Positions 6,950 through 58,499 of a DNA stretch of 58,499 bases are shown here, piece after piece; position 1 is the first letter of the stretch; each line of letters starts with the position of its first letter. A program made the position numbers and the translations under genes. Source of the DNA: a virus. Lineage: Duplodnaviria > Caudoviricetes. The notes under the pieces were generated by a model. It worked only from the letters and a program-made list of their open reading frames with translations, searched no databases and was not told the DNA's origin. The stretch is taken from positions 1 through 58,499 of IMG/VR virus record IMGVR_UViG_3300046011_001509. One strand, given 5' to 3'.

Positions 6950-6951
6950 CC

Positions 6952-7191: not shown

Positions 7192-7199
7192 GAATCATC

Positions 7200-7762: not shown

Positions 7763-7827
7763 AACTAATCTGGACACCAACAGACTGGGGCCGCGCACGT
7801 GTTGTAGCGCGGTGGGTGCGGGTATGA
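7759..7827 (+). CDS. 22-aa microprotein (MKLIWTPTDWGRARVVARWVRV)
   Basis: Manual read; ATGA-coupled at both ends. Confidence 0.45.
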   Translation: MKLIWTPTDWGRARVVARWVRV

Positions 7828-12166: not shown

Positions 12167-12366
12167 CTGAGCGATGCGATAACTGTAAGTTTCATCGGAA
12201 CATTTATTCCGACGAAGCAACTCCACCAACCGTGTACTGCAAAAGGTTCCCTCCATCCACCCCTGTTATGGAAGAAGGGGAATGGAACTGGTACACACCT
12301 GAAGTTGACGCCGATGGTTGGTGCGGAGAATGGAAGAAAGCCAAGAATCTTCCAGAGCAAATCTGA
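12163..12366 (+). CDS. Cys-rich hypothetical protein
   Basis: CDNCKF...CKRFPP...WCGEW. Confidence 0.65.
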   Translation: MTERCDNCKFHRNIYSDEATPPTVYCKRFPPSTPVMEEGEWNWYTPEVDADGWCGEWKKAKNLPEQI

Positions 12367-12404
12367 TTGCTATAGATTAAGTAGCATCAAACCCGCTTGG
12401 TTAC

Positions 12405-12451
12405 TGGAGGCGCGATCCAGAGTCGAACTGGACTAACCGGATTTGCAATCC
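12405..12451 (-). other. attP core: 3' half of tRNA-Cys(GCA) including CCA
   Basis: Minus strand GGATTGCAAATCCGGTTAGTCCAGTTCGACTCTGGATCGCGCCTCCA = anticodon arm, T arm, acceptor 3' strand; 5' half absent; downstream of int. Confidence 0.92.
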
Positions 12452-12589
12452 AACATGCGAATGTAGCACACCGCTGTAACCCGCATGGATACTGGGCTAC
12501 TGGTCGTGCATACAGCGCATAGGTGCCACCACTTGCACCCTGTTTGCCAGATATTTACCAGAGGAGTATTCCCCCTACTAGAATGCGCC

Positions 12590-12850
12590 ATGCGGTTTGC
12601 CATAGTGATTACCCTTGCCCTGCTTGGCTGCTCAAAGGAGACGCCAAAATCTAATGCGCTCAACGTTGAGCGCATTGCGCCAGAGCCGCAGCGCACACTT
12701 CAAGTGGGAACCAACCAACTCATCTCGGTACAAATCCCCGGACAAGAGTGGCACTCCACCCAGAAGTGCTACATCTTCCGCGACTTGGAGTTCAAGACAT
12801 CCAGCATAAGCTGCCCAGCCGGGGCTACTGGGAAGATCGAACCGGACTAG
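12590..12850 (+). CDS. Small lipoprotein
   Basis: MRFAIVITLALLGC lipobox; beside attP. Confidence 0.75.
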   Translation: MRFAIVITLALLGCSKETPKSNALNVERIAPEPQRTLQVGTNQLISVQIPGQEWHSTQKCYIFRDLEFKTSSISCPAGATGKIEPD

Positions 12851-18800: not shown

Positions 18801-21800
18801 CCACATAGAAGTAAAGGCGGTCTTTGATGTAGCCGCTTGATTGAGCGCGGTCACGCTCTGCGCCATTGAGACCGGAGCCGTGGAACTGGCTGCTGAGTAT
18901 CTTCCGGCGCTGCTGGCTGAAGTGAACTCCAACCTTGGCTACCGATCCTTCTCTGGCAACTCCGTAGTCGCGTTCGGCTTCTGCTGAAGACTGCGTAGCG
19001 TCTGCGAGAGCGCGTTCCTGAACTCTTGATCTTGTGCGTCCAGCGCTGCTATTGTCGATCCAGTCTTGTCGCTTACCAATAGATTCTCTTGCGAGTTTTC
19101 TGAGTTGAACGAGGTGATCCCTTTTCTCACTCCGAAGAATGGTCCGTCCTTCACTGGATCGTGTTTGCTCCGAATTACCTTTGCCATACTTGCCTTCTTT
19201 CAAATAGTCGCCACGGTTATCTGACCAAATCAACTCACTCTCATAGCGCTCAATCTCTTTGATATCCAATGCTGCGCCATCCCATTCAAGAGACTCAACT
19301 GCACTCACAATTCCAGCTTCAAACTCCTCATCACTCAGCCTTGACTCACCATTGAATGCTGTGAAGTTTCCAAACACCAACTCACTCGGCTTTGTTTGTG
19401 TGTTTGCGTCAGCGCGTGGGAACTTTTCGTGAATCAGATCGCGCAGTTCTTGTAGCTTACTGCTAGGGAACCCTTCAGGCAAGATCACCTTGATAAATGA
19501 GTTCTGATTACCACCGCTGGTGTTGCCCTCATCAAACACAACCATTGATTGCTGGTCGAGGATGTAGCCAAGCTCACGGGCTACATCGTTCAACTGGTCT
19601 TGAGTTGCGCTCTCTGGCGCGTCAATGATGAAGTTCGGATTCGTCTTTCCTTGGTACTGACCAGTGGACATATCAATGTCCCAGCCACGAAGACCGTGCA
19701 TATCCATCAAACTTCTGAATAGCTTTTGCGCTACGTTGCGATTGGCCGCAGCCTTCTCGCTCCACTCTTGCGCATCCCATTCCTGCGCCGTGCTTTCTCG
19801 CCTGCGCATCAACTTTTCCTTGTCACTCATTAAAGAGTAGTCTCTGGAAATCTTCTTGCCACCAAGCAATATTTCTTCGCCGGACTGGTCTTGCTCGTAC
19901 CCCCTGTCGACCGGGTGCGGAGCAACCTCACCGATTACACCCTTGCGGCTGTAGTCGGGATCATCCACCACTGAATCGCTGATAGTCCCGTCACGGCGAA
20001 GCTCAACAATCGCATCGCGCAGAACCATCTTGGCTTTGGTCAGGTCCGCAACATACTGGTCTACCGCTTTGGACTTGGCATTACCTTTGCCACCACGCAG
20101 TTCAGCGATCAGATCGTTAATGGTTTGCAGCCACTTGCTTGCCCATTGCTGGAAGTTCTTGGGGTCAGCTTTCGCAAGAGACTTGATGAACTCACGGTCT
20201 GTGGCGCGGTTGCCAACAAAGTCAGCCATCATCTCCTTGCGCGTCTCAGCCTTGTCAAGATAGCCCTTCGCGGCTTCCATCCTCAACGCACTGAGCTTGG
20301 CTTTCTGCGACACCGACCAATACTTCTGTGGCATCGGGTTACCCTTGCCGTCCTTGATCGAATCCGTGTAAGCGACTATCTCTGGAGAGGCGTTAATCCT
20401 GTCTGACGCAAGGAAGTTGGCGATGTAATCCAGCTTGCCTTTCTCCCCCATTGAGTCGTAGATTGCATCGACCTTGGAGATGTACTTCTGCGCGGGTGTG
20501 TTTGTCTTGCCGTCGCGTGTGTCAGCTTCGGCTTGCGCCTGCATGACGTGGTGGGTTTCATGCCACCCAGTTGTCAGTGCATTGGAGGTGAGTCCCTTGG
20601 TGTTGATGTAGACCTTGCCATCAAGCTGGATGCCATTGACTGAGTCAGGGCTTGGGTCACTGAATGCAACCACTTCAGCGGTAACGCCAAACAGCGCCTT
20701 CGCCTGCTGCATAGCAGCTTGAATCTGTGAGTCAGCCTTTGCATCTGGCGCTCCCAGAGTTATCTTCGGGTTGGTCGCCGGGTCTTTGGCGTTCCAGTGG
20801 TCTAGGACTTTTTGGGCTGACTCTCTGCTGGCAACGGCTGCTTGTTGAACAGACTGTTGTACGCTTGATCCCGCTGTGTTACCCACAACTGGAACTCCTG
20901 CGGCGACAGTGTTCGTCGCATTTCCTGTTCCTTGGCTTGCTCCAGTAGCGCTGTTCCGCACTGCCTCTGATTCATTTGCAACCTCCGTTGATTGTGGAAC
21001 CCGAGATAGTAAATCCGAATCACTGGTCCGCGCAATCGGGTTCGTTACTGTCGTTGCATTTGCTCCACTGGCTGGTTGACGTGGTTCACCCACAGCAGCA
21101 GCCGCAAGTCCTCCCGTGTCGGTTCCCACTCCATTTCCAGTCGCAGTTGCATCGACCACGCCTGTCGTGGCGTCAGCGCTCCCGCTTGGTAGGCTGACTG
21201 GATCGGTTGGTAGAACTCCAGTTGTGTTGCCATTAAGTACGCCTTCGATGTTTGCAGTTGCGGCTTGGATTGCCGGGTCAGCTTGCGCTTCACCGACTTG
21301 AGCTACGCCCCCCACAGACGCTTCAAACGCAGCGATGGCTGTGCTGGTATCAGGCGCGGAACTTATCGCAGCCGTGGCCCTATCCTGCCTCTGCTCTGGG
21401 CTATTGGCAAGGTTTGGATTCAGCGTTGTAGGCACATAGCGCTCTGGCTCTTTGCGTGACTCGCTGAGTGCAGCAACTCCTGCAAACGGACCGCTCGTCA
21501 ACGTTGCAGTAGCCATTGCCTCTGCAACACCCTCATCCCACTTCCTGCTCGGGTCAATGGTTTGTATTTGCTTGTTAGCGATGACGTTTGACGAACCTTC
21601 GTCAATGTTCTCGCCAGCCAATTCTTTGGCAACAATCTTGGCGAAACCTTGCTTCTCGGCAGTTTTACCAGCAGCCTTCGCTAGACCTGATGCAACCATT
21701 GCCGCTTCAGCGCCGCCATAACCAAACGCCATACCAATGGGGGCAGCTATCAGAGCAGCCATCCTTGCCTTGGTAGTGGCGATCTCTTTCCTTGCCTCAA

Positions 21801-22827
21801 GAGGGTCCATCCCCTTGTTGTCAACCAAGTCACGATAGTCTGGGTTCGCATCCATTAACGACTGTTTCGCCGCCATGACACCGTCATAGGTTGAACCAGC
21901 AGCGTCACCCGCTGACATACCGCCAGCCGCTGACATACCGCCAATCGTCCCGCCAAGCTTTGATGCCGTGCTGGCAATAGCTCCGCCAGACACAGCCTCT
22001 CCAAGCGCCAAGGTAGGGGATGCCCTGCCAGCAAGACCAACCGCTCCAGCCGCAGTTCCAGCCACAAGCTTAGATGCGCCAAGAATGCCGATGAAGTTTG
22101 GTATTTGCTTGATGCCCTCTTGTATTCCAAGAGAGGGGTTCGCCACAAGTGATGTCAATGTTTCAACATACTTGCCAAAGAAACCATCCTCTTCATCGAT
22201 ACGCTTACGCATGAGTGCGCGTTGCGCCTTTACTGTCTCAGACTCCTCGCCAGCAAAGTCTGCCTGTACTGCGCGGAAAGTATCTGCCAGCATGCTGCCG
22301 GGAGCGATGATGTTGGTTGGCAACTGTGCAAGCGATAAGGTTCCTTGCTTTAGCGCAGCAACTGAATCTCCAGCCCACTCACCAATACTGCGGAACTCAT
22401 CTGCCTTGGCTTTCAGAAGTGTGCCGTCATCTCCTGAGTCGTTGGCTTTTCTGGACGCATCAACCCCTCCAGCCAAAACCTTTGCGCCCCTAGCCGTAGA
22501 CCTGTCCGCAATGTCAGTCGCATTGGCTTTGGTGAACATGACAGACTGCGGACTCTTGCTTCGATTACGCGCTTCGCGGTTAGCAGCGAGGTCAACGTCA
22601 TCAGTCATTCCAGCAGGAGCCTCCATCGTCACATCCTGAAGAACGCTCTCCTTCTTTGGCGTACTTGCGCCAGTGGCAAAGTTACGCACGGAGTTCATAG
22701 CGCTGCCGACCATATCCATCATGGATGGCTCTGGAATCGCCTCAACTGCTTTAGCCTCTGGTGCGTCTGGCAAGTCGTCAAACAAGCCACTATGCGTCAC
22801 TGGCAAGTCATCAAATAGTCCAGCCAT
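12847..22827 (-). CDS. 3326-aa polyvalent (LPD38-type) internal virion protein with two HExxH peptidases, ART-like, GNAT-like and topoisomerase IB core domains
   Basis: Last gene of the late operon after ejection proteins; WHETHH, IHELYGHIG, TGFRIG/FIGKSG/HDFRTW/HYVDP, C-terminal NLTVNFNRFG...FLFYNASVQG...YWDKIPDFEKERNLII LPD38-like region. Confidence 0.85.
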   Translation of the reverse strand: MAGLFDDLPVTHSGLFDDLPDAPEAKAVEAIPEPSMMDMVGSAMNSVRNFATGASTPKKESVLQDVTMEAPAGMTDDVDLAANREARNRSKSPQSVMFTKANATDIADRSTARGAKVLAGGVDASRKANDSGDDGTLLKAKADEFRSIGEWAGDSVAALKQGTLSLAQLPTNIIAPGSMLADTFRAVQADFAGEESETVKAQRALMRKRIDEEDGFFGKYVETLTSLVANPSLGIQEGIKQIPNFIGILGASKLVAGTAAGAVGLAGRASPTLALGEAVSGGAIASTASKLGGTIGGMSAAGGMSAGDAAGSTYDGVMAAKQSLMDANPDYRDLVDNKGMDPLEARKEIATTKARMAALIAAPIGMAFGYGGAEAAMVASGLAKAAGKTAEKQGFAKIVAKELAGENIDEGSSNVIANKQIQTIDPSRKWDEGVAEAMATATLTSGPFAGVAALSESRKEPERYVPTTLNPNLANSPEQRQDRATAAISSAPDTSTAIAAFEASVGGVAQVGEAQADPAIQAATANIEGVLNGNTTGVLPTDPVSLPSGSADATTGVVDATATGNGVGTDTGGLAAAAVGEPRQPASGANATTVTNPIARTSDSDLLSRVPQSTEVANESEAVRNSATGASQGTGNATNTVAAGVPVVGNTAGSSVQQSVQQAAVASRESAQKVLDHWNAKDPATNPKITLGAPDAKADSQIQAAMQQAKALFGVTAEVVAFSDPSPDSVNGIQLDGKVYINTKGLTSNALTTGWHETHHVMQAQAEADTRDGKTNTPAQKYISKVDAIYDSMGEKGKLDYIANFLASDRINASPEIVAYTDSIKDGKGNPMPQKYWSVSQKAKLSALRMEAAKGYLDKAETRKEMMADFVGNRATDREFIKSLAKADPKNFQQWASKWLQTINDLIAELRGGKGNAKSKAVDQYVADLTKAKMVLRDAIVELRRDGTISDSVVDDPDYSRKGVIGEVAPHPVDRGYEQDQSGEEILLGGKKISRDYSLMSDKEKLMRRRESTAQEWDAQEWSEKAAANRNVAQKLFRSLMDMHGLRGWDIDMSTGQYQGKTNPNFIIDAPESATQDQLNDVARELGYILDQQSMVVFDEGNTSGGNQNSFIKVILPEGFPSSKLQELRDLIHEKFPRADANTQTKPSELVFGNFTAFNGESRLSDEEFEAGIVSAVESLEWDGAALDIKEIERYESELIWSDNRGDYLKEGKYGKGNSEQTRSSEGRTILRSEKRDHLVQLRKLARESIGKRQDWIDNSSAGRTRSRVQERALADATQSSAEAERDYGVAREGSVAKVGVHFSQQRRKILSSQFHGSGLNGAERDRAQSSGYIKDRLYFYVDRGNGVTPEAGVGGVKHIIKLNNLYDVSKDHKGFGRMSTGATEQERQTKFENFVKNAGFDGYFMDKAANQDFAVLLGKHSIEMPSYKRRTKSVDDFVYDEDTTGDLGNFNLDAIEVEELDKEDIGDLDFTSPDDDALSALADEAAFRQRMVNRARRIDNPQGPKAVTKESMAQHGIFPERAFAHTFGNPDFNGDSVGSSVGMNPNAAYPHSTITKVGDDQYKVSAAAGWFDNGSNYTKNVAINLFKAHLVRGFIHDSGYDIASAYKKGTNLKIAKAWLELAKAKNAFKYKTSTSTDFTQIGKDLDAFNGYSVSVDSTNIRDATIRFIDKSTNHNYLAVTHFSELSDDDGFAVNTMGLKGSRVGTAVYAVIGQWAKNQKEKFYCDTNISAVNTFRRTEQSFSFAIKTGDSTTLLPGQQNRIYGFDENASTPEEHLMNISRLAIANMRNVMEVLPDTTTTENGSHKATYKPSTSQWIDENDSPTMIGLTRLSLDPETGVFTDSSGKDVTKGIQRWLNDPKNRGTGIGESTLARAVMTNGIIMGKVDANEVNEFAKPIAYARKRIDVLAVEDVEGVAEKGYTKEQKAAALVEKFKRMRDFHNDRDSLLTQIERDATAGKEEAVVLRLIAHTGFRIGGGMSKSGPTYGASTLRPEHVKVTGDVAQFDFIGKSGVQQRHSIKNADIAKDISKRMGGESLFKTADRAVRKYKDSLDGGKKYKVHDFRTWQATKSAQLVVDGMPQPTNEAEFKAYVDLALQAAATKIGDTLATTKEHYVDPQIFDGWRNSAGVSESESEGSDGANEAATSEANDGAAGQGSNEPGVRDSEEGLTGYKRSITSLGGVSTKITAGQEAAFIGKLNQSLLGSGNTIHLVKTHGDLPVNVQQVSSPGDMGITFGRGDVYIVQDNIHSAEDFESTVIHELYGHIGLRALFGPEIYKRLNKLSLSLGESKIAYLVQKYKLDTNGYVNFANNITTSQHMNRAAGGQSEIRRAWLMEEVLSHIAENETGSLRQFALEVVGAIKSWLRDNGFMQLAKLDMADIAHILKQSRVAAFEKSGVVDVPMFKRKGYPAAQGLPEESKGQAIQRVMQDKYNRVKMVQDLLLEGGGVVGEEQDVYRAEERMHGRVHEVLRDFADNVVHPLINKAVEYKVDLNELAAYAYAKHAKERNAHIQKTNQHVKTGSGMSDAEADNIIQLVELSQDAAKFEELHADLLAITSTTRRLMLDEGLITQDQYDGLESQYENYVPLRGFEDVDPDSGSVRPGLGRGFNTKGKETIAAMGRDSKAGDIIENIIRDYERITIRAERNAVGKTFLDLVTSNPDANLWEVQPMTRATRKVNGLIEYVDTLDKGDETISVKVGGEQVYIKINDPLLLRAMQNTFKAETSDAEMMMTKTLGVYTSLLRNTITRYNPVFGLVNAARDAQMGAAAIFDELGAEGLRRYTANYGAAGVASWRVERNTSDPQAHPMDKWMREMRFAGGTTGGVFMRDHASIRQELRDAMLQAGAAPISFDASNKSGVINKLDHYATAAGERARKTTAWWATGKLLHGLELVGSMSENTARLAAYATAREMGKTPAQAASIAKNLTVNFNRFGEQGQLINTAFLFYNASVQGSVRIYQMAKNPKVRYAMAGMASVGMGLALWAASVGGDDEDGQAYWDKIPDFEKERNLIIMLTPGADIGEKVGTHGRYMKFPMAYGLNVFPVLGYQLADLARNVKDPARGVGAVKVAINMLSATAGSYNPAGGSFDPRDEHQAALAWRPTILDAEYQIREGVDGFGRKLGPEKSPYDQKPDSETVSATNHGRVEHRIARWLNSVSGGNMALKGAVDIEPGTIKNLEGIVGGGLGRFVGDVINLGYLGAIDAPINTRDIPIYKAFYGEYDSKSGMSLFYDRSKEAKKEFADMKAQAKIGIQPKYSDEKKFLQGMGAYAENISEMMGDLKKEEVKIAESNSTDKEKELKRRMVQKKREKMAEDFNTDWYKKESKLKRKS

Positions 22828-49358: not shown

Positions 49359-49824
49359 AGCTCACCTTCAGGCTGAAGTCGATTGGAGCGCCGTCCTTGC
49401 CGGTGATTTCCTGCTCGGTCTTATCGCGCCAGCGTCCACCTTGTCGATTGCGAAGCCAAAGGCTTGCTGCCGTTGTGTCTGGAGGGTAATGCTTAATCAG
49501 GTGCGTCTCAACGATCTGATTCTGAATAACCTTGATATCCACCTCTGGATGCGAGTAGCCTTTTGCTCGGTGATATAACGATTCCGCTATATCGGAGTCA
49601 GCAATTACCTTTCCAAGGCGTATGGACTCAAGAAATTCTGGGTGAGCAGTCTTCCAAGCGTTTAGTGTTTGCTCTGAAACTCCAAAGAAGTCAGCCATCT
49701 CGCCATCTGTGAACCCAAGCAAACAAAGCTTTCTGCCTTGCTCTGCATATTCTGGCTTGTAAGCGCTTGGCCTACCTACTGGCGCAGCCTTAACAGCAGG
49801 CTTCACAGCCTTCTTGGTAGCCAT
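49351..49824 (-). CDS. terS: Terminase small subunit
   Basis: GRPSAYKPEY...ADFFGVSEQTLNAWK...HYPPDTTAASLWLRNRQ. Confidence 0.9.
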   Translation of the reverse strand: MATKKAVKPAVKAAPVGRPSAYKPEYAEQGRKLCLLGFTDGEMADFFGVSEQTLNAWKTAHPEFLESIRLGKVIADSDIAESLYHRAKGYSHPEVDIKVIQNQIVETHLIKHYPPDTTAASLWLRNRQGGRWRDKTEQEITGKDGAPIDFSLKVSFV

Positions 49825-50330
49825 TAGACCAACTCTCCCTTGCGGGATGCCACTCGGCGTTGAGTTGCTACGGCAGCAGCTACCTCTGGGCTGTATGAAG
49901 CAAGTCCATAGGCGACTATCTGCTTCACTGCGTTTGAGCCAACCCCTAGCTTTCGTCTTACATCAACAATTGTTTTGAACTCATCCAACACAGCGGAGAC
50001 TTCAACCGCCCTGCTTCTCAAATAGGCTTCGTTCTTCTCTTTGTTTTGCTTGGCAAGCTTTGCTTTACCAGCATCTGACATTTCATGGGTTTTCCCGGCG
50101 TTGTTCTTGGAATTTTCAAGACACCGTAAAGTCGCTGCCGCTTTGTAGTCCGGGTCTTGCAGTGCCCGTCTCTGCGAATCAGCTATCCGGGTAGAGAGTT
50201 CGTCATCAACCAACGCTTTCGTCTTTAGCAATCCAAACTCATGCCTATACTCGGCTGGGGTAATCTTGTGCTTGTGCTTTACATGAACCCCAAGCGCAAC
50301 AAAATCCCTCTGGCAAATCAGGCAGCGCAT
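49824..50330 (-). CDS. MucR/Ros-family zinc-finger protein
   Basis: CLICQRDFVALGVHVKHKHKITPAEYRHEFGL...ALV. Confidence 0.75.
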   Translation of the reverse strand: MRCLICQRDFVALGVHVKHKHKITPAEYRHEFGLLKTKALVDDELSTRIADSQRRALQDPDYKAAATLRCLENSKNNAGKTHEMSDAGKAKLAKQNKEKNEAYLRSRAVEVSAVLDEFKTIVDVRRKLGVGSNAVKQIVAYGLASYSPEVAAAVATQRRVASRKGELV

Positions 50331-50331
50331 C

Positions 50332-50559
50332 TCAGTGATCCACCACAAGCATCTGCGACTCAAGGGATGGAAAGGTTCCGAGGTTCTTTTGCAGGCCAGT
50401 CAGACCAGCATCTTGGCGTTGCATCAACTCGTCCATGCGCTTCAACAGCAGATAACCGACTTGGTGCGCGTTGGAACGCTGGTCAAAGTCCGTATCCATT
50501 ACGACTTGGGACTCTACTGCGCCATCCACATCGTCCAGAGTGATTGTGATCTTTGGCAT
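50332..50559 (-). CDS. Hypothetical protein
   Basis: 75-aa ORF. Confidence 0.6.
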   Translation of the reverse strand: MPKITITLDDVDGAVESQVVMDTDFDQRSNAHQVGYLLLKRMDELMQRQDAGLTGLQKNLGTFPSLESQMLVVDH

Positions 50560-50868
50560 TTACGCTCTCCGACCTTGTGACATTTGTTCGGCTGGTGAGC
50601 CTCTTACGCTCTGGAATCCATTGGAAAAGGAGTCAACAGCTTCTTGCTCACCATCCATCATTGGAGCCTGCTCTTCTGCGGGTCCACCAGAAAGCATCTG
50701 CTTGGCAGCGTTCAGCGCTTCATCAATGCTGGCAAAGATTGAGCCTTCAGCTTTGTCTTCAGCCATGTCAGCTTGACCCATCTCGCCACCCATAGGCTCG
50801 GCTTCACCTTCAGGGGCCACCTCAAAGGTGCCGTCTTCTAGCGCGGTGATGCAGATGGTTTGAGACAT
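50560..50868 (-). CDS. Acidic hypothetical protein (first late gene)
   Basis: 102-aa ORF. Confidence 0.65.
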   Translation of the reverse strand: MSQTICITALEDGTFEVAPEGEAEPMGGEMGQADMAEDKAEGSIFASIDEALNAAKQMLSGGPAEEQAPMMDGEQEAVDSFSNGFQSVRGSPAEQMSQGRRA

Positions 50869-50884
50869 GGTGGCTTTCAAGAAT

Positions 50885-50907
50885 AAAAAAGCCAGAGCTA
50901 GTCTGGC
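50885..50907 (-). terminator. Terminator ahead of the late operon (tR'-like)
   Basis: GCCAGA-loop-TCTGGC followed by T6 on the minus strand. Confidence 0.65.
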
Positions 50908-51215
50908 AAGGGTCAGACAGGGGGACTGACCACGGGGAGGTAATGGGTGCGGGGTGCGGGTCTTTGTGTACAGGTACGGATAAAGGATGATTCCCGACCC
51001 CTACATAGGTTGGAACAGAAGGCTTGCATAAAGCAGCATTCAGTTAAACCGTATCAACAACAAGAGATATCAAGTTACACGGCGCTAACCCGTGTCACCT
51101 TCAGTTCCAAAAAAGCCGACTGAGCCAGATGGCTTGTTTGGAGACACCTATCCAAAAACACGGTTGGGCATCTGTTGCTGTTACTGGAACACCCAGTATT
51201 TCTTGCCTTGCACAC

Positions 51216-51243
51216 ATTTTACCTATTTATTGCACATTTGCAA
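51216..51243 (-). promoter_or_regulatory. Putative late promoter (PR'-like)
   Basis: Minus strand TTGCAA-16 nt-TAAAAT, followed by terminator hairpins. Confidence 0.5.
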
Positions 51244-51251
51244 CATCCCTC

Positions 51252-51280
51252 TTGACATATTGTTGAGTCTTTGGTAAATT
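51252..51280 (+). promoter_or_regulatory. Sigma70 promoter for the replication leader
   Basis: TTGACA-17 nt-TAAATT with extended TG. Confidence 0.8.
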
Positions 51281-51289
51281 CTCTTCATC

Positions 51290-51396
51290 GACCTTGGCAG
51301 GAAGATGAATCCAGACCCCTTTGGTCTTAGCTTCCTAGCCCCTCACCGGGCGTCACCACCTGCCAAGTGGGGAGCTAAGAACCAAAGGGGTTTTTT
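51290..51396 (+). ncRNA. Structured leader RNA / attenuator
   Basis: Long stem 51315-51335 pairing with 51369-51391 plus U-tract; loop CCTGCCAAG complementary to upstream CTTGGCAGG. Confidence 0.6.
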
Positions 51397-51725
51397 GCTT
51401 TCTGGAGCCAGAACCGAAGTTCGTCTGGCACGAAGTGGGACTCAGAACCCAGCCAGAACCCAGTTGATTGACTTGAATGTGGGCGGGCTTAACAGCGTCA
51501 ACAGCGCATCAAGTGAGTAGCGGTACTGGTGGGAAAAGGTCTGCAACACCGCGCAGATGGGTGGCGAAGCTAGTGCCCATGACCTGAACGACTGGCGGGT
51601 GTCGAGTGTCCGTACTGGATTTTGACTGAAGGCTTTTCTCTTTATTGAGGAAAGGCTAGGTGCGCTCGGAACCGTTTGGATTAGAGGTTTCTTAGGTAAG
51701 TAGTTACTAACAAGGAGTAAGTTGA

Positions 51726-52121
51726 ATGAACGATCTTCCAAGCTATATCGACCCCGAACTGTGGGCTGGGTTCCTTGAATCACGCAAGGCAATGAAAGTC
51801 CCGTTTACAGACTTTGCCAAAAAACTGACCCTGAAGAAGCTGATGGGCATGTATGAAAACGGCTGGTGCCCGAACTCTGCGCTGGAGAAAAGCATTACCC
51901 ACGGTTATAGGGGCGTTTTTGAGACTGACCGCCGTGATGCTGGGCAAAAGATGATTGGTCAAAGTCAGCGCACCTACCTTGAGAGCTTCAAGGAGCGCGA
52001 CACCCGGATAGCCCAGCAGCGCTGGGAAGAGATGACTGGCCTAAAGCACCCGGGCAACAGCCATCCTGACTTTATTGACGTAATCGGTTCCAACCAACTG
52101 TTTCTGGAGGTGCAGCAATGA
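51726..52121 (+). CDS. Replication initiator C-terminal-type domain (no N-terminal HTH)
   Basis: LPSYIDPELWAGFLESRKAMK...SITHGYRGVF resembles the C-domain of phage replisome organisers; SD AAGGAG. Confidence 0.65.
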   Translation: MNDLPSYIDPELWAGFLESRKAMKVPFTDFAKKLTLKKLMGMYENGWCPNSALEKSITHGYRGVFETDRRDAGQKMIGQSQRTYLESFKERDTRIAQQRWEEMTGLKHPGNSHPDFIDVIGSNQLFLEVQQ

Positions 52122-52534
52122 TCCGCGCTATTGACCGCTTGTTCCACCGATTGGGGGCTACCTACGGAGCAGAATGGGACCGTTCACTGGGCGCAACTCC
52201 AATTGGAGACGCCAAGACTGTATGGGCGCATGAACTGTCTTGCTATACAAGCAACCTGCAATCCATCGCATGGGCACTGGAGAACCTGCCAGAGCGCTGC
52301 CCGAACGTCATCCAGTTCAAGAACCTCTGCCGCCAAGCCCCTGCGGCAGCTACCGAGATGCTGCCAAGCCCGAAGGCTGACCCAGCCATTGTCAAGATGA
52401 TTACCGAGAAGCTGGCGTCTGCACCAGTGCATCAGATTGGTAGACACGACTGGGCTAAGTACATCCTGCAAAACCCAAAGGGACGCACACCAACTGTGAT
52501 CCATATGGCTAAGAACGCACTGGAGTATGCATGA
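52118..52534 (+). CDS. Lambda P-like helicase loader
   Basis: IDRLFHRLGATYG...WAHEL...PNVIQFKNLCR. Confidence 0.7.
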   Translation: MIRAIDRLFHRLGATYGAEWDRSLGATPIGDAKTVWAHELSCYTSNLQSIAWALENLPERCPNVIQFKNLCRQAPAAATEMLPSPKADPAIVKMITEKLASAPVHQIGRHDWAKYILQNPKGRTPTVIHMAKNALEYA

Positions 52535-52665
52535 CCTACTCAGAAGCAGTTGTAATCCTCTCCCGGGTCCGCGCCGGGGACAAGTCACCCACATCATTGC
52601 AGATTAACCAAGCGCTCGTGCTGACGGGCGACTTGGAAGGCGTGAACCTGCAACTCGCAGACTAA
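52531..52665 (+). CDS. 44-aa hypothetical protein (MTYSEAVVILSRVRAG...ALVLTGDL)
   Basis: Manual read; ATGA-coupled, SD GGAG. Confidence 0.6.
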   Translation: MTYSEAVVILSRVRAGDKSPTSLQINQALVLTGDLEGVNLQLAD

Positions 52666-52851
52666 CCCACAGGCTCACCCGTTGAGCCTACGCATCGTTC
52701 ACACGCAGGACATGCGCGATCCCGCATCGCATAAATCCAAATCAGTTGCACACGTAATGCGCGGGACTTGAAACCCATGTTGTTGCGTTTTTGCAACATG
52801 ATCGTTTCATTGGGGAATTCACATTATTTTGAACTTTTGTTGAAATATCGC

Positions 52852-52880
52852 TTGACTGCTTGTTTTCCTTTTGGTAAAGT
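52852..52880 (+). promoter_or_regulatory. Sigma70 promoter for the early small-gene block
   Basis: TTGACT-17 nt-TAAAGT with extended TG and AT-rich upstream element. Confidence 0.8.
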
Positions 52881-53152
52881 TCAACCCATCGAATCGCATC
52901 GTCGGTATCGAAAGCCAGCAAAAACGGCGACCCGCTCTCAACGGCGGCATAGAAAAGAGTTGACGCCCTTGCATCCCCATAACAACGGGAAGCGGCCTAC
53001 AGCAGCAATGCTGGCCTCAAAGCGACGGTGTGAAGAGTGGCCCGGTAACGGCTACAGATGGAACCCAACGGGATATGCCATTGACCTACCTCTCACAAGA
53101 GGACAGGAGCATGGGTACTCGTTGTGAGTGTCCATACCACTGGAGATGAACC

Positions 53153-53314
53153 ATGAGCAGAAAGCACTTTGTAGCCCTAGCGTCAGAAATCCACAAAATC
53201 CAAGACGATGCCTCTCGCCGCGCCGCAGCAATTGCAGTTGTCGCTGCATGCCGCCAATTCAACGGCGCGTTTGATGCAGGCCGTTTCTATACAGCTTGCG
53301 GGGTGGAGATATGA
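53153..53314 (+). CDS. 53-aa phage early protein (MSRKHFVALA...FNGAFDAGRFYTACG)
   Basis: Manual read; SD GGAG; N-x2-F-D-x2-R-F-x2-A-C motif typical of phage early proteins. Confidence 0.7.
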   Translation: MSRKHFVALASEIHKIQDDASRRAAAIAVVAACRQFNGAFDAGRFYTACGVEI

Positions 53315-53505
53315 GCCTCCGTCTTATCCGCACAGAGAAGTCAAACGGCGACACACACATCGCCAAGATTTATCGCAATGCTGAGTACGACGAATACGTT
53401 GTCAAGTTCTACCGCGATGGCGTCTACCAAGTCGATGCCGACTACTTCACTGACGACATCGGCGATGCGATCTCCACGTCGACCCACTTCACATCAAACA
53501 AGTAA
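53311..53505 (+). CDS. Hypothetical early protein
   Basis: AKIYRNAEYDEYVVKF...ADYFTDD..DA. Confidence 0.7.
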   Translation: MSLRLIRTEKSNGDTHIAKIYRNAEYDEYVVKFYRDGVYQVDADYFTDDIGDAISTSTHFTSNK

Positions 53506-53514
53506 GGAGCAGAT

Positions 53515-53721
53515 ATGTACCAAGGACATTGTGCAGACGGCAGCAGCATCCAGAAACATAGCTGCGGTGCTTTGTACCCACTTGTGCTTGTGTACACAGA
53601 GGGTGCAGGGTATTACTTCCTTTGCCCAGATGGGTTGGAACTCAAAACCATCAGCGGCGATTTTGAAACTGCGCACAAGGTAGCAGATGCTTACAACGGG
53701 TTGAAAAGCGTACTGCACTAA
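53515..53721 (+). CDS. Hypothetical protein
   Basis: SD AAGGAG. Confidence 0.65.
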   Translation: MYQGHCADGSSIQKHSCGALYPLVLVYTEGAGYYFLCPDGLELKTISGDFETAHKVADAYNGLKSVLH

Positions 53722-53777
53722 AGCTCAGCCTATTGCCAGCGATGGCAATGGAGTGTGTTTTACCCAAGGAGAACAGC

Positions 53778-53969
53778 ATGATTGATATGGGACAAGCTGA
53801 TAGCTCATTACGCCGCAGACAACTCAGCGAACAAAGCCTTGTTTGCTGGACTGTAGCGCTCAAAAGAGCCGCAGAGCAGATGGGGTTCAAGCATTACATG
53901 GACGTTCCAATGGAGCGCGATGAAGAGTTGCGTTCTCTGGCACACGAAATACGGGGGACAGTCGTATGA
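53778..53969 (+). CDS. Hypothetical protein
   Basis: SD AAGGAG. Confidence 0.6.
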   Translation: MIDMGQADSSLRRRQLSEQSLVCWTVALKRAAEQMGFKHYMDVPMERDEELRSLAHEIRGTVV

Positions 53970-54127
53970 AGTACATCCAGCGAAACGGACAAGGCTACCT
54001 TGAAACCGTTGATGAGTTCACGACTTACCGCGAGGCCCGGGACATGCTCAAGGAATACCGCATGTCTGACCCAAGCGCTCACTACTACATCAGCCAGCGT
54101 TGCTGTGCGAATTGGAGGCAATCATGA
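53966..54127 (+). CDS. 53-aa hypothetical protein (MKYIQRNGQGYLETVDEF...SQRCCANW)
   Basis: Manual read; ATGA-coupled at both ends. Confidence 0.65.
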   Translation: MKYIQRNGQGYLETVDEFTTYREARDMLKEYRMSDPSAHYYISQRCCANWRQS

Positions 54128-54333
54128 AACAACCACGCTACTACGCCCTACGTTGCTATGCCAGCACGGGGTTCCCAAAGTTCTATGACTCATTCAAGAC
54201 GCTCACTCTGGCACGACAGTGGGCGAAGCAAGCACTCAAGGATGGGTATCACACAGTCGAGATTCTGCGGGATCAACCCCGGAAGGTCGGCTACTTCGGA
54301 ATTGAACGTGAACTACTGGAGACACTGCAATGA
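54124..54333 (+). CDS. Hypothetical protein
   Basis: SD GGAGG; coupled. Confidence 0.6.
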   Translation: MKQPRYYALRCYASTGFPKFYDSFKTLTLARQWAKQALKDGYHTVEILRDQPRKVGYFGIERELLETLQ

Positions 54334-54563
54334 AGATCATTGGCTACACCTATGAGGCAGACGTTCACTGCCCTGCTTGCACACTGAAGGCCACCGAGCA
54401 TCCGTATGCATGGATTTCAAACCCGGTCCCGCTGCGAGATGAGCATGGCATCTTGCAAGATGCAGTTGACCGCGAAGGCAACACTGTGCGTCCAGTCTTT
54501 GACATTGACGAAGACCCGGATGGTTCTGTTACCCACTGTGGCGATTGCCACGAATCACTCTGA
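54330..54563 (+). CDS. Zinc-binding hypothetical protein
   Basis: HCPAC...HCGDC. Confidence 0.65.
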   Translation: MKIIGYTYEADVHCPACTLKATEHPYAWISNPVPLRDEHGILQDAVDREGNTVRPVFDIDEDPDGSVTHCGDCHESL

Positions 54564-54611
54564 CCCTACCGCATTGCATCCTATGGGTGCAATCCAGTGG
54601 AGTTACTAACC

Positions 54612-54632
54612 AACCGCTTCGGCGGTTTTTTT
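54612..54632 (+). terminator. Terminator-like hairpin
   Basis: AACCGC-TTCG-GCGG followed by T7. Confidence 0.7.
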
Positions 54633-54649
54633 ACGACTGGAGGTCAATC

Positions 54650-55156
54650 ATGGGATGGTCATTTGAAATTCGTGAACGTAGCCGCAAAGACTTTATCGAG
54701 AGCCTGACCGGAGATAGACACTTCAGCGAAGACTACAAGGCGCTGGAGTACCGAGTCGTCGGCAACCATGTGTGGCAGCTTGTCCGTCAGGTGTCTGCGA
54801 ACCGTGTGTTCATCTGCTTGGACCTGATCGCCAAAGAGCGTGGCGGCGGCTGGGGCTACAAGGGCTTGAGCGAAGACATGGGACCGTACACCTATGACTG
54901 CCCATTGGCGCTGCTGAATAAGGCATCTGAGCCTATCAACGAGAACGCAAAGGAATGGCGTATCAAAGTGCGTGAGTTCCACGCCAAGAAAACAGCCAAG
55001 CGCAAACCAGCGGCTGGGATTGTCGTCAAGTCTGGCTCTCACCAGTACGAACTGCTTGAGCCATGTGCGCCCCGTAAAGGCTGGCGCGTCAAGGACATTG
55101 AGACTGGCGCTACCTACCGTATGCCAGCAGCACAACTATCGAGGGCGTTGGCATAG
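54650..55156 (+). CDS. DUF6927-like protein
   Basis: MGW...WGYKGLSEDMGPYTYDCPLALL...AKEWR. Confidence 0.7.
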   Translation: MGWSFEIRERSRKDFIESLTGDRHFSEDYKALEYRVVGNHVWQLVRQVSANRVFICLDLIAKERGGGWGYKGLSEDMGPYTYDCPLALLNKASEPINENAKEWRIKVREFHAKKTAKRKPAAGIVVKSGSHQYELLEPCAPRKGWRVKDIETGATYRMPAAQLSRALA

Positions 55157-55175
55157 CGCCATTCACAACAGCATC

Positions 55176-55202
55176 AGCCACCTACGGGTGGTTTTCTTTT
55201 TT
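55176..55202 (+). terminator. Terminator-like hairpin
   Basis: GCCACC-TACG-GGTGG followed by a T-rich tract. Confidence 0.65.
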
Positions 55203-55213
55203 AAGGAGTAATC

Positions 55214-55666
55214 ATGGGAACAAGAGCGCGAGTCGGAATCGTCAGGCCAGACGGCAGCATTATCAGCATCTACACCCACTGGGATGGCTACCCAGCGCAC
55301 CATGCACCCATCCTGCTGGGCCACTACGACACCCCTGAGAAGATGGGCGAACTGCTGGCTCTGGGTGACTTGTCTGTGCTGGCCGAAAACATCGGTGAAA
55401 AGCAGGACTTCGATGACCGCGACCACCGCGACTGGTGCAAGTCCTATGGCCGTGACCGTGGCGAAAAAGACTGCAAAGCGAATCTCAGCCCAAGCACCAC
55501 CGCATTTGAGCAATCAGCCCATGACTGCGGAGCAGAGTATGTCTACCTGCTTGATGGTGGGGGGTGGATTTACAGCGAAGTGCCGATGTACGCCACGCAG
55601 TCATTCCACTACGGCGAACTGAAAATTCCGGCTCCACGGCCAGACACCATTAGCGACCCGTATTGA
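55214..55666 (+). CDS. Conserved phage early protein
   Basis: MGTRARVG...SIYTHWDGYP...LALGDLSVL...YGRDRGE...EYVYL. Confidence 0.75.
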   Translation: MGTRARVGIVRPDGSIISIYTHWDGYPAHHAPILLGHYDTPEKMGELLALGDLSVLAENIGEKQDFDDRDHRDWCKSYGRDRGEKDCKANLSPSTTAFEQSAHDCGAEYVYLLDGGGWIYSEVPMYATQSFHYGELKIPAPRPDTISDPY

Positions 55667-55765
55667 TATGAACCGACACCGACTGCTGAATTTCACCCTT
55701 GGGGCTGTGTACATCGCAGCCCTTTTTGTTTTGTACCTTGACGTTTTTATTTTTAGGAGTTAATC

Positions 55766-56758
55766 ATGGCCGCACTACTCGACGAATCAAACAGCCAATT
55801 CAACATCGCCTACGTTGGTGACGTTCCTTGGCATGGCAACGGACAAGCGCTGGAGGCTGGTCAGTCCATCGAAGTCTGGGCGAAAGCCGCAGGCTTGGCA
55901 CACGAAGTCAAGCGCACCATCGTGCAGTTCCACAACGGCAACGAAGTCGCACTCTACGGGGACCGCGAAGTGCTGTACCGCAGCGACACACTGCAACCAC
56001 TGGGTGTGGTCGGCAACAAGTACAAGATCGTTCAGCCTGCACAGGTGTTGGACTTCTTTGCGAAGCTGGCGCAGAACAACCACTTCCAGATTGAGACGGC
56101 TGGATCACTTGCTGGTGGTCGCCGCATCTGGGCATTGGCAAAGGTCAGCGATGGCGCTCCTGTGCTGGGTCAGGATGTGGTCAAGCCTTACGTCCTGCTG
56201 GCTACGTCTTATGACGGTACGTTGGCTACCACTGCCCGGTTCACTACGGTGCGGGTTGTGTGCCAGAACACACTTGGCTATGCCACCGAAGAGGCAGGCG
56301 ACACCGTGAAGGTGCCACACAGCGCAGAGTTCGATGCAGACGCTACCCGCTTGGACTTGGGCATTGCATTCTCTGGCTTCGACAAGTTTTTGTTCGATGC
56401 TCGCAAGCTGGCAAAGCGTGAGGTCAATGAAACCTTTGCGATTGAGTTCCTGAAGCAGTTGCTGCCTGACACCGTGAGCGTGAAGACCGAGAAGGATGGA
56501 CGCCGCACAGTCACCCCTGTACCAGCGGAAGAGACGAAGGCATTCGCCGCCATCTTGGACTTGTTCAAGGGCAATGCGCTGGGTTCAGGATTGCCTGAGT
56601 CCCGTGGTACTGCATGGCAGTTACTCAACAGCGTGACCCAGTACACGGACCACGTTGCAGGACGCAGCGTTGACACCCGCCTGTCATCGGCATGGTTCGG
56701 TCAAGGCAATGCACTGAAGTCTCGGGCAAGGGACCAGTTGCTGGCGGTGGTGGCGTAA
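55766..56758 (+). CDS. DUF932 / phage-plasmid-like protein
   Basis: PWHGNG...ETAGSLAGGRRIWALA...TSYDGT...VRVVCQNT...GTAWQLLNSVT. Confidence 0.88.
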   Translation: MAALLDESNSQFNIAYVGDVPWHGNGQALEAGQSIEVWAKAAGLAHEVKRTIVQFHNGNEVALYGDREVLYRSDTLQPLGVVGNKYKIVQPAQVLDFFAKLAQNNHFQIETAGSLAGGRRIWALAKVSDGAPVLGQDVVKPYVLLATSYDGTLATTARFTTVRVVCQNTLGYATEEAGDTVKVPHSAEFDADATRLDLGIAFSGFDKFLFDARKLAKREVNETFAIEFLKQLLPDTVSVKTEKDGRRTVTPVPAEETKAFAAILDLFKGNALGSGLPESRGTAWQLLNSVTQYTDHVAGRSVDTRLSSAWFGQGNALKSRARDQLLAVVA

Positions 56759-56796
56759 ATCAATGGGGCTTCGGTCCCTTTCCTTTTGGAGGGTCT

Positions 56797-57027
56797 ATGG
56801 AAAGCACTGTCGCAGGCATCCCCTGCATCATCAATGTGACCTACTACTTCAAGCAGGAACCGCTTGGCCCAATGTGTGATAGCGACTTGGATTGCTATGG
56901 ATACACGGAGATTGAGTTTGAAGTCTGCGACAGGCGTGGCAGGCCAGCACCTTGGCTGGAGCGCAAGCTGACGCAGGAAGAGAAAGAGCGCATCGAAACC
57001 GAAATAGAGGAGTATCAAAGTGATTAA
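56797..57027 (+). CDS. Conserved phage protein
   Basis: VAGIPC...EVCDRRGRPAPWLERKLT. Confidence 0.7.
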   Translation: MESTVAGIPCIINVTYYFKQEPLGPMCDSDLDCYGYTEIEFEVCDRRGRPAPWLERKLTQEEKERIETEIEEYQSD

Positions 57028-57292
57028 GCAACTACCAGCCTACCTGCTGTATAGCGAAGACTACAAGGGCAACCCGCAATACATCTTGTCGCTTTGCGAG
57101 TTGAAAGTCGCAGGCTACGTCACCGTCAACCAGCAGCAGTTCGACGTTGAAATTCCAGACGACTTCGATCCCCGCAAGCTTCAAGTGGAGGCGCTGCGCG
57201 AAGAGAAGCAACGCATCAGCGCAGAGTTCGCAAGGCGCTGCACCCAGATTGAAGAGCAGATAAATAAGTTGACTGCCTTGGAGTACACATGA
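57020..57292 (+). CDS. Hypothetical protein
   Basis: SD GAGGAG; C-terminal coiled coil. Confidence 0.65.
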   Translation: MIKQLPAYLLYSEDYKGNPQYILSLCELKVAGYVTVNQQQFDVEIPDDFDPRKLQVEALREEKQRISAEFARRCTQIEEQINKLTALEYT

Positions 57293-57507
57293 CACAAATC
57301 ATCAACAACACAGGTGGCTTCGTAGAGCGCGTCACCATCGACCGGGTTGACGCACTACCCGGGAGTTTTCACATCCATGTGGAGATGCAGTACGCCGACT
57401 CTCGCAACCCTGATGCATGGCGTACCGTCTACCGTACAACATGTGAGCAGTGGGCGCTGGAGTCTTTTGGACGCGAAATCTATGAGGCTGTGGTTCAATC
57501 AGAATAA
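57289..57507 (+). CDS. Hypothetical protein
   Basis: SD GGAG; coupled. Confidence 0.6.
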   Translation: MTQIINNTGGFVERVTIDRVDALPGSFHIHVEMQYADSRNPDAWRTVYRTTCEQWALESFGREIYEAVVQSE

Positions 57508-57517
57508 GGAGTAATTT

Positions 57518-58396
57518 ATGCCGATCAAAGTGTTTTATGACCCCCGTCAGTCCTGCGAATCGGCAAACAGCTACAGCCCATCAGCCGCCAAGCCTGCGAA
57601 GGTTGTGGCTGATTGGTTGAGCGATGAGCGCATTGCTCCACACATCCAAATTGAGACGTTCAACAAGGCCACGGATGATGTCCTGTGTGAAGCGCATGAC
57701 CCGGCGTACATCGCAGGCATCTTGGACGGTTCAATCGACAACGGCTTTGGAAACAATAGCCCAGAGATCGCAGAGTCCCTGCGCTACACCGTAGGCTCTA
57801 TGCTGGCTGCTGCGAAGTACGTCTTGAACAAAGACCTCTTCAATGAAGAGCGCGTTGCTGTGTCTCCGACATCTGGTTTCCATCATGCGGGTCACTCGTT
57901 TGGTGGTGGCTATTGCACGTTGAATGGCTTGGTCATCACGGCGAAACGGCTAAAGACGTTGGGGCTTGTGAACCGTGTGTTAATCCTAGACCTTGACCAA
58001 CACTACGGCAACGGTACACAAGACATCATCGACACGCTGGGGCTTGATTGGATCACCCACATCACGGCAGGCAAGTCGTATGACACGGCAAGAGATGCGC
58101 TATCACATTGCTGGCTTGCGAAGGAGTATGCACCTACCGGACGTAATCCGCATGACCTTTTACTGTATCAGGCTGGTGCTGACATTCATGTGGACGACCC
58201 GCTTGGTGGGCGTATGACGACTCAGCAAATGCAAGAGCGTGACAAAGCCGTGTTCCTTTGTGCATCAGGATATGGGTTGCCATGCGTGTGGAATCTTGCT
58301 GGCGGCTACAAGCGTGATGCACAAGGGACGATTGAGCCAGTGCTTGCACTGCACCGCCAGACCATGCTGGAGTGCATCAAGCAGTATCCGGGGTAA
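57518..58396 (+). CDS. Zn-dependent histone deacetylase (HDAC/AcuC) family amidohydrolase
   Basis: GFHHAG, GGYCTLNG, DLDQHYGNGT, YQAGADIHVDDPLG, LAGGY; SD AAGGAG. Confidence 0.93.
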   Translation: MPIKVFYDPRQSCESANSYSPSAAKPAKVVADWLSDERIAPHIQIETFNKATDDVLCEAHDPAYIAGILDGSIDNGFGNNSPEIAESLRYTVGSMLAAAKYVLNKDLFNEERVAVSPTSGFHHAGHSFGGGYCTLNGLVITAKRLKTLGLVNRVLILDLDQHYGNGTQDIIDTLGLDWITHITAGKSYDTARDALSHCWLAKEYAPTGRNPHDLLLYQAGADIHVDDPLGGRMTTQQMQERDKAVFLCASGYGLPCVWNLAGGYKRDAQGTIEPVLALHRQTMLECIKQYPG

Positions 58397-58499
58397 GGAT
58401 ACACAAATGTGGTATATGCCAGTCGAGATAAGGTGACTAACATTGCCCCTTCAAGAAAATAGGATAAAAATGAAAACAGGAATCTCGTGGGGGGGGGAT
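58372..58499. repeat. Terminal direct repeat / circular overlap, copy 2
   Basis: Matches 1-129 with G9 instead of G10. Confidence 0.97.

Follow-up and report, generated by a model that had tools for sequence, protein, structure and literature searches.

A Betaproteobacteria-1 RNA, longer than its catalogue entry, ahead of replication-type genes in a tailed-phage record

The window analysed here—the whole of IMG/VR virus record IMGVR_UViG_3300046011_001509, a 58,499-base stretch of tailed-phage DNA (Caudoviricetes) that is classed as linear and estimated to be 78% complete—holds, in the leader in front of its second block of rightward genes, one copy of a known phage RNA family, the Betaproteobacteria-1 RNA (Rfam RF02932), that is longer than its catalogue entry. 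Downstream of the RNA lie a gene for a stand-alone or ‘headless’ O-type initiator domain of 131 amino acids (aa) and a gene for a 138-aa protein that appears ‘P-like’ in its N-terminal part. An earlier, sequence-only reading of this region had proposed that the structured leader, acting as an RNA or R-loop, takes the place of the initiator's missing DNA-binding domain in the selection of an origin. Our analysis leads to a different preference: we think it probable, on balance, that the RNA is a co-transcribed regulatory or processed RNA of an early operon, and that the 131/138-aa pair is an adaptor-plus-loader module.

The Betaproteobacteria-1 RNA and its fold

The 5′ domain of the RNA occupies positions 51471–51600 of the + strand (the strand of all sequence features given below, unless stated otherwise) and is made up of helices P1, P2 and P3 together with two pseudoknots. 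It matches the RF02932 model over positions 1–120 of 120, not truncated, at 87.6 bits against a gathering cut-off of 49.4 (E 7e-15). This is the sole Rfam match in the window at the gathering threshold; on the + strand of 50800–53300 no other Rfam family was found at E ≤ 5, and the window holds no tRNA or tmRNA. The cmscan alignment shows no non-standard pair marks: helices P1, P2 and P3 are able to form, and the invariant single-stranded blocks GGUGGCGAAG and CGGGU are both there. The leader of ~330 nucleotides (nt) had been described as structured and apparently non-coding, and both parts of this description stand, with the RF02932 match lying far above its cut-off and no open reading frame (ORF) of the leader matching any Pfam or PHROG family. 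RF02932 is said to stem from a survey of 224 motifs. In the main text of that survey (PMC5737381) the word ‘betaproteobacteria’ was not found, and the literature on Betaproteobacteria-1 / RF02932 yielded nothing on its function.

Conservation does not stop where the catalogue entry does. The RF02932 model ends at 51600, whereas the family, this copy included, goes on for ~80 nt through helix P4, a GAAGG block, helix P5, GGCUAGGU and a duplicated word; in relatives the conserved part reaches ~80–100 nt past the model, and in the window ~80 nt, to 51681. Within this uncatalogued 3′ domain (51601–51681), P4 is formed by 51601–51604 and 51623–51626 (90% paired, with 4/4 pairs covarying) and is followed by GAAGG at 51628–51632. 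P5 (51633–51640/51647–51654) comes in two forms, the commoner of which is 78% paired with 6/7 pairs covarying; the window carries the rarer one. Next comes the conserved GGCTAGGT (51654–51661), and the duplicated word has its first copy, DR1 (51610–51620), in the loop of P4 and its second, DR2 (51672–51681), after P5.

Pair counts were taken from a MAFFT alignment of 77 sequences on which the structure was written by hand. P2 is paired in 77% and P3 in 99% of cases, both with two-sided changes. Of the two pseudoknots of the family, which the linear RF02932 model does not encode, PK1 joins the strand before GGUGGCGAAG to the P3 loop (92% paired, with changes on both sides) and PK2, a ‘kissing’ interaction between the P2 and P3 loops, is 89% paired, all five of its pairs changing on both sides. 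Taken over all helices, 77.9% of cells pair, as against 63.7% after shuffling (a value as high as the observed one being reached in 0/500 shuffles) and 34.5–42.6% when partners are slid. P1 is only 43.5% paired in the MAFFT alignment, where its block of columns looked misaligned by eye; the Rfam alignment pairs P1 in the window. Conserved secondary structure is present, then, with helices that covary across the 77 relatives, and no remnant of a helix-turn-helix gene can be detected in the leader.

Two of the hairpins singled out by the sequence-only reading are parts of this fold: ATGGG/CCCAT (51557/51576) corresponds to the covarying helix of pseudoknot PK1 (92% paired across the 77 sequences), and GGCTTTTCTC/GAGGAAAGGCT (51631/51647) is the window's form of P5. 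Of the other two, TCTGC/GCAGA (51540/51553) is in competition with helix P2, which is conserved, and no support for this hairpin was seen in relatives; GCCAGA/TCTGGC (51407/51424) lies 5′ of the Rfam match and outside it, and one other phage keeps this stem with compensatory changes. The direct repeats CAGAACC (three copies), AACAGCG (two) and GTACTGG (two) are present where they had been placed, but they are short words that occur 15, 10 and 12 times, respectively, on the window's + strand. Conservation across the family is instead a property of the duplicated word, CCGTACTGGAT at 51610–51620 and CCGTTTGGAT at 51672–51681.

The two words of one sequence resemble each other more closely than words compared across sequences (median score 7.5 versus 5), with 40/77 sequences above the 95th percentile of the control, and they are mutual copies, not complements; their reverse-complement score has a median of 4 versus 5 in the cross-sequence control. 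Further copies on the same strand number 30 elsewhere in the loci, versus 16.2 ± 4.9 in controls, an excess that may reflect base composition only, and complements of the word are not enriched there, with 13 reverse-complement matches versus 10.4 ± 4.1. The P4 CI RNA and the c4 antisense RNA of P1/P7 are structured RNAs processed from phage early-operon leaders, and the window resembles them in having a structured RNA in an early-operon leader, oriented toward replication genes, with repeated words flanking a folded core. The words of P4 and P1, however, complement an RNA loop, whereas those of the window are copies of each other for which no complement was found; a P4 CI/c4-like reading of the 3′ domain was set aside, there being neither a word complement nor an Rfam match. 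Readings of this domain as tRNA-like or signal recognition particle (SRP)-like were likewise dropped, with no Rfam match and with a ‘CCACCA’ end that is not conserved in the window. Separately, GAGTGTCCATAC at 53126–53137 is one letter off the P4-loop stretch 51604–51615 and sits just 5′ of a ribosome-binding site, the ORF following at 53153. As a target of the word, the GAGTGTCCGTAC match at this place was rejected: it is within chance, roughly six such pairs being estimated per 2.3 kb.

The headless O-type protein and its coupled partner

The 131-aa protein is encoded at 51726–52121. As the sequence-only reading had it, the gene has a Shine-Dalgarno sequence of its own (AAGGAG, 51712–51717, 8 nt before the ATG) and an in-frame stop (TGA, 51723–51725) directly before the ATG at 51726. 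Its product is, again as proposed, a C-terminal domain only: PHROG 678, ‘replication initiation O-like’, is matched (E 3e-10) solely at profile positions 218–312 of 346, and a ‘primosomal protein’ PHROG at positions 176–240 of 272. By tblastn, its first 66–88 residues fall on the last third of annotated O proteins: on residues ~186–246 of the O protein of Acinetobacter phage Ab1656-2 (293 aa, its gene followed by a P gene) and on ~193–284 of the O-like protein of Erwinia phage PEp14 (292 aa). The protein matches no Pfam family and shows no N-terminal winged-helix origin-binding domain. An AlphaFold2 (AF2) model gives a four-helix domain at residues 10–65, for which Foldseek returned nothing from the PDB at E ≤ 0.001.

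Being headless is not peculiar to the window. We find 32 short homologues of 106–133 aa, and a profile search over 1.84 billion representatives gave 6832 matches at E ≤ 0.001; among the best 150 of these, 88 (median length 116 aa) have the start of the domain in residues 1–50, and in 56 (median 274 aa) it begins no earlier than residue 100. As 88 of these 150 best representatives stand alone, the 131-aa gene is not broken or truncated. A search aimed at longer homologues found a single protein (E 3.6e-4), the long forms coming from the exhaustive profile search. An N-terminal family could be assigned to 31 of the 56 long forms: HTH_36 in 10, Phage_rep_O in 8, DUF1376 in 6, Phage_rep_org_N in 2, and RepA_N, Lin1244_N, DnaD_N, DUF6291 and DnaA_N in one each. 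This variety of N-terminal families, together with the solo forms, makes the domain a modular adaptor: some proteins carry it joined to one of various origin-binding heads, others consist of it alone.

The gene for the 138-aa protein (52118–52534) overlaps that of the 131-aa protein by an ATGA, and an ATGA overlap also joins it to a 44-aa ORF (52531–52665) that may be coding and has no family match; these overlaps suggest that the three ORFs are translationally coupled. At least 1185 proteins of ~140–150 aa make up the family of the 138-aa protein; they fall into no Pfam family, and one of them is annotated ‘replication protein P’. The window's protein itself was matched neither in Pfam (E ≤ 0.1) nor in PHROG (E ≤ 0.01). 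Residues 1–79 of its model (pLDDT 81.5) superpose with VIA-align on residues 36–119 of lambda P in the DnaB–P complex (9oa1_Z; Z 9.4, root-mean-square deviation 2.5 Å, 76 residues aligned), the next row of the structural alignment standing at Z 3.4, and Foldseek compares the model with lambda P at E 0.34 and probability 0.77. Since, with helical folds, Z values under ~13 can reflect a common arrangement, we take the match to lambda P as moderate evidence. The C-terminal part of the model (residues 80–138), the counterpart of which in the lambda P family would be the helicase-binding region, is barely covered by any structural alignment. The earlier suggestion of a P-like loader behind the initiator finds its counterpart in this superposition, and the label ‘P-like’ appears to hold, with moderate support, for the N-terminal domain only.

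Comparison with lambda brings out both the likeness and its limits. The 131/138-aa pair has the gene order and the gene overlap of lambda O/P, and the C-terminal domain of lambda O is its P-binding part. Lambda O, on the other hand, has an N-terminal origin-binding domain whereas the 131-aa protein has none (no Phage_rep_O match in this protein or in the record), and the chain of lambda P in 9oa1_Z has 230 residues, as against 138 in the window's protein with its lack of any Pfam or PHROG match. Unlike lambda, the window lacks iterons (in 50880–53200) and its pair is not downstream of cro. The latter point bears on the idea that the pair occupies the classical position of O, which does not hold: the cI/cro-like gene pair lies at 363–1343, and the genes after it are neither O- nor P-like. 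In a six-frame search of the 58.5-kb record we detected no Phage_rep_O (PF04492), HTH_36, DUF1376 or DnaB_C domain at E ≤ 1, leaving the headless pair as the sole replication-like module seen.

Upstream of the RNA, a sigma-70-type promoter is predicted at 51252–51280, with TTGACA, a 17-nt spacer, TAAATT and a TG before the −10 box (10/12 consensus matches); the scan of the region gave 4 sites versus 1.9 ± 1.3 in shuffled sequence. Between promoter and RNA lies a long imperfect hairpin (51314–51397; inverted repeats I2 and I6) that ends in GGGG and TTTTTT and may act as a terminator, RNAfold assigning −48.4 kcal/mol to 51288–51402.

Relatives of the RNA, their neighbours and what the RNA may do

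A scan of IMG/VR with the invariant core of the RNA found at least 120 stretches, and 94 of those listed carry the motif's flanking features; a scan of bacterial genomes with the core pattern gave mostly chance matches in GC-rich genomes, with flanking features in 3/120 listed stretches. The neighbour counts below rest on these 97 other loci (94 from IMG/VR and 3 from genomes) among the matches listed, hereafter the listed loci, which share ancestry, such that the counts are of non-independent events. One relative, in a Roseateles metagenome-assembled genome, scores 63.9 bits with the Rfam model. The cultured Acidovorax phage AP1 carries the RNA at 93.4 bits, between a primase gene—itself preceded by a helicase gene—and small genes, a phage context that it shares with the copy in the window.

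Upstream of the RNA there is an ORF on the same strand in 64/92 listed loci, often ending ≤10 nt from P1; among the upstream neighbours are primase (11 loci), PAPS-reductase-like genes, methyltransferases, RusA and HNH, and among those downstream ParB-like genes, helicase, NinB, RusA and TerS. With a crude detector, terminator-like sites were found before the RNA in 21/96 listed loci and after its tail in 6/94, and from their scarcity after the tail we take the RNA to lie, normally, inside a longer operon transcript. Near-identical copies also turn up in contigs of RNA libraries from three studies, labelled mosquito, biogas-fermenter and soil metagenome: starting at 51498, 51510 or 51521 and ending at 51684 or 51719, they match the window at ≥95%, with 1–2 changed letters and ≤4 gaps in ~200. 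These data consist of contigs that cover a small share of the stretch, from which the ends, strand and level of a transcript cannot be read. Two of the three contigs turn unlike the window from 51719 (the third having only a 19-nt loose end after 51684), and this divergence marks the RNA as a mosaic module. The RNA is, in short, a portable module that has spread among early, replication and recombination operons of phages.

Among these varied neighbours one kind stands out. The commonest gene family of all, A1 (~124 aa), is present in 37/97 listed loci, always downstream and on the same strand, its genes starting 84–2695 nt past the end of the Rfam-modelled part. A1 matches the middle of ‘replication initiation protein’ PHROGs (positions 179–261 of 383) and also, across 125 phage records, portions of proteins annotated as initiators, RepA-like or DnaD-like. 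At profile level it is unrelated to A2, the family of the window's 131-aa protein (hhalign probability 0.06), and neither family gave a meaningful match when its profile was compared with PDB sequences. Counted together, headless genes of the A1 and A2 families are the commonest downstream neighbours of the RNA, at 38/97 listed loci. One locus (L103) repeats the order seen in the window, with the RNA followed by an A2-type gene (40% identical, E 7e-11) and a weakly P-like gene (hhalign E 0.001, probability 22%).

Headless genes are also found without the RNA. In locus L002, the gene for a homologue 61% identical to the 131-aa protein starts right behind a coding region that looks YqaJ-type exonuclease-like by eye, and no RNA is present. 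The complete phage MW202674.1 has an A1-type gene and lacks an RF02932 match there: none reaches the gathering score within 7 kb, and the 1.4 kb upstream of that gene hold none even at E ≤ 1. The 860-nt ‘gap’ before its A1 gene (5840–6720) is in fact filled with ORFs, one of which resembles, by eye, a small helix-turn-helix protein. This ORF may be a hint that the DNA-binding part of some headless initiators is encoded by a separate gene. ORFs of ~103 aa found 5′ of A1 genes were considered as the other half of such a split initiator and rejected: by eye they looked signal-peptide-bearing and not like DNA-binding domains, and a representative had no PHROG match.

How might the RNA act? In the reading that we favour, transcription would run from the promoter at 51252–51280 through the terminator-like hairpin into the RNA, which would form the 5′ leader of a coupled operon comprising the 131-aa adaptor domain, the 138-aa P-like protein and the 44-aa ORF. 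The RNA would then work on its own transcript or be excised from it—a mode of action, in cis or by processing, that we put forward tentatively—serving the early operon as an element of regulation or processing, and the phage-specific duplicated word might be where a factor binds it. It would not be a substitute for the DNA-binding domain of the initiator; instead the 131/138-aa pair would serve as adaptor-plus-loader, with origin recognition, if any, coming from elsewhere or being unneeded.

Several points weigh against this reading. A cis-regulatory mechanism is deduced from position alone, and Rfam types RF02932 as ‘Gene; sRNA’, which implies action in trans. The hairpin 5′ of the RNA looks like a strong terminator, past which transcription would have to run to reach the RNA. 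A headless gene is present in 25/46 listed loci with ≥3 kb of downstream sequence, and the frequency of A1, always downstream and on the same strand, fits a tie to replication better than it does a neutral neighbourhood. Nor was any origin-binding domain or helicase found in the record itself (six-frame search, E ≤ 1; record 78% complete).

The Rfam type leads directly to the first alternative, a trans-acting small RNA that is cut from the operon transcript, or ends within it, and acts on other RNAs or proteins. The compact fold with its two pseudoknots would suit a stable RNA, the duplicated phage-specific word might serve in recognition, and the RNA-library contigs from three studies span little beyond the RNA, although, because DNA can occur in such libraries, this is a weak hint. 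Against it, terminator-like sites after the tail are few (6/94 listed loci), the short distance from the upstream ORF to P1 usually leaves no space for a separate promoter, and words complementary to the duplicated one are not enriched. We consider such an RNA rather unlikely.

The second alternative is the RNA-assisted initiation put forward by the sequence-only reading, in which the RNA or its R-loop marks the origin and recruits the headless adaptor and the P-like loader. It would resemble ColE1 RNA II and other R-loop-primed origins, in which a folded leader transcript sets the start of replication through a lasting RNA–DNA hybrid that RNase H processes to a primer; the likeness is to the mechanism proposed. 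In its favour, the RNA of the window is placed directly before a headless O-domain and P-like pair, an order that recurs in L103; a second, unrelated headless family, A1, follows the RNA in 37/97 listed loci, without exception on the same strand; in 11 of the listed loci a primase gene adjoins the RNA; and the record yielded no origin-binding domain or helicase of its own (six-frame, E ≤ 1). Set against this, the RNA has varied neighbours, and the idea that it stands in for an origin-binding domain is not supported. No headless gene is present in 21/46 listed loci with ≥3 kb downstream; unlike ColE1 RNA II, the Betaproteobacteria-1 RNA also adjoins unrelated genes and complete helicase–primase modules, with helicase and primase genes beside it in AP1 and other loci; and homologues of both A1 and A2 occur without it (MW202674.1 and L002, respectively), stand-alone domain proteins running to thousands of clusters, far beyond the range of the RNA. 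The association counts, moreover, are not independent, the relatives being of common descent, and no complement of the word in cis stands out (13 versus 10.4 ± 4.1 in controls). On this evidence we judge RNA-assisted initiation improbable. The combined version, in which the Betaproteobacteria-1 RNA, the headless A1/A2 domains and the P-like loader together make up an RNA-dependent choice of the helicase-loading site, is more doubtful still, and the same holds for the part of it in which the RNA or its R-loop would replace winged helix and iterons, with the duplicated word giving specificity.

A portable RNA in early operons could also be a decoy or anti-defence RNA, or the partner of a host factor. 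The mosaic distribution, with near-identical copies in differing contexts, would fit, as would the early-expressed position and the lack of a conserved partner gene, the most widespread family reaching only 37/97 listed loci. The RNA shows no likeness to any known decoy, however, and no defence-related evidence came to light, none (with PADLOC or otherwise) having been looked for; this explanation is reached by elimination alone; we give it little credence. 

Least probable of all is a conventional double-stranded DNA origin with iterons and a separate binding protein, the alternative that the sequence-only reading had itself named: the lambda origin lies inside O, just before the part encoding the C-terminal domain, a place to which that of the leader is equivalent, and the duplicated word is phage-specific as iterons are, yet there are two copies of it only, no iteron-like family of three or more copies exists in 50880–53200 (12/13 direct-repeat families there are two-copy, and the sole three-copy one, D1, is the duplicated promoter at 62–71% identity), no initiator DNA-binding domain was found in the record (six-frame, E ≤ 1), and six helices kept paired by compensatory changes speak for a single-stranded fold, not a duplex site.

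Flanking elements, gene layout and significance

Just 5′ of the −35 box of the predicted promoter is a palindrome, TTGCA..TGCAA (51227–51246), which belongs to direct-repeat family D2 and of which a copy, 80% identical, is found at 52780–52799; its sequence suggests a role as operator. A second copy of the promoter, with TTGACT, 17 nt, TAAAGT and a TG, can be discerned within 52780–52880, and is followed by a ~270-nt non-coding leader up to 53152, before the ORF at 53153; in Rfam this leader is matched by RAGATH-33 alone, weakly (22.9 bits; cut-off 120.4) and on the minus strand. Both promoter regions, at 51252 and 52780, are probably under a common regulator. Just beyond the small terminase gene, a gene on the minus strand (49824–50363) encodes a 179-aa protein with a ROS/MucR zinc-finger regulator domain (E 3e-8), a candidate for the regulation of the divergent promoters.

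Between the terminator-like hairpin and the Rfam match, the GCCAGA/TCTGGC stem and the CAGAACC words that follow it form an element of 57 nt (51403–51459). An 84% identical match was found in a single relative, phage MW202426.1 (at about 2490–2560), where it comes after a primase gene and a terminator-like hairpin and where the stem is altered on both sides, to GCTTGA/TCAAGC. There is no Betaproteobacteria-1 core near that copy, and a strict-pattern scan of viral contigs for the element gave 0 matches. It may be a small regulatory element in its own right.

In the record as a whole, rightward genes fill 1–12850 and 51726–58499 of the ORF list, and a structural block on the minus strand (12847–50880) encodes large and small terminase, a portal-like protein and a giant ORF of 3325 aa. 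The RNA and the genes coupled behind it take up the divergent gap, 50881–51725, and the start of the second rightward block. With its cI-like repressor (363–1160, minus strand), cro-like protein (1131–1343) and integrase (11198–12163) genes the phage looks temperate; NinB, RusA, HNH, RecT, an exonuclease, MazG and SSB are encoded as well. The layout is one that we take to resemble Bcep22- or PEp14-type podophages. At the end of the structural block, the C-terminal 900 residues of the 3325-aa ORF (12847–22827, minus strand) match giant-protein PHROGs without an assigned function, and in Acidovorax phage AP1 the equivalent place is taken by a gene with the annotation virion-encapsulated RNA polymerase. 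The rightward block of the RNA also contains genes for a DUF932 protein (55766–56755, E 9e-56) and a protein of the histone-deacetylase family (57518–58393; PF00850, E 3.5e-32).

What do these observations mean for the phages concerned? The stand-alone O-type adaptor domain, with its thousands of clusters and no Pfam model, is a common type of phage protein that has gone undescribed. The RNA is an orphan class with a pseudoknotted fold of ~210 nt, widespread in phages of freshwater and Betaproteobacteria type, to which the window adds a clear example in which a replication-type operon has this RNA as its leader. Its most frequent neighbour is a headless initiator domain, drawn from two unrelated protein families, and this link is a lead that can be tested in the cultured Acidovorax phage AP1. 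Were the link functional, phage DNA replication would here be started or controlled in a new way; were it not, the RNA would still be a good target in the search for a new cis-regulatory or processed phage RNA.

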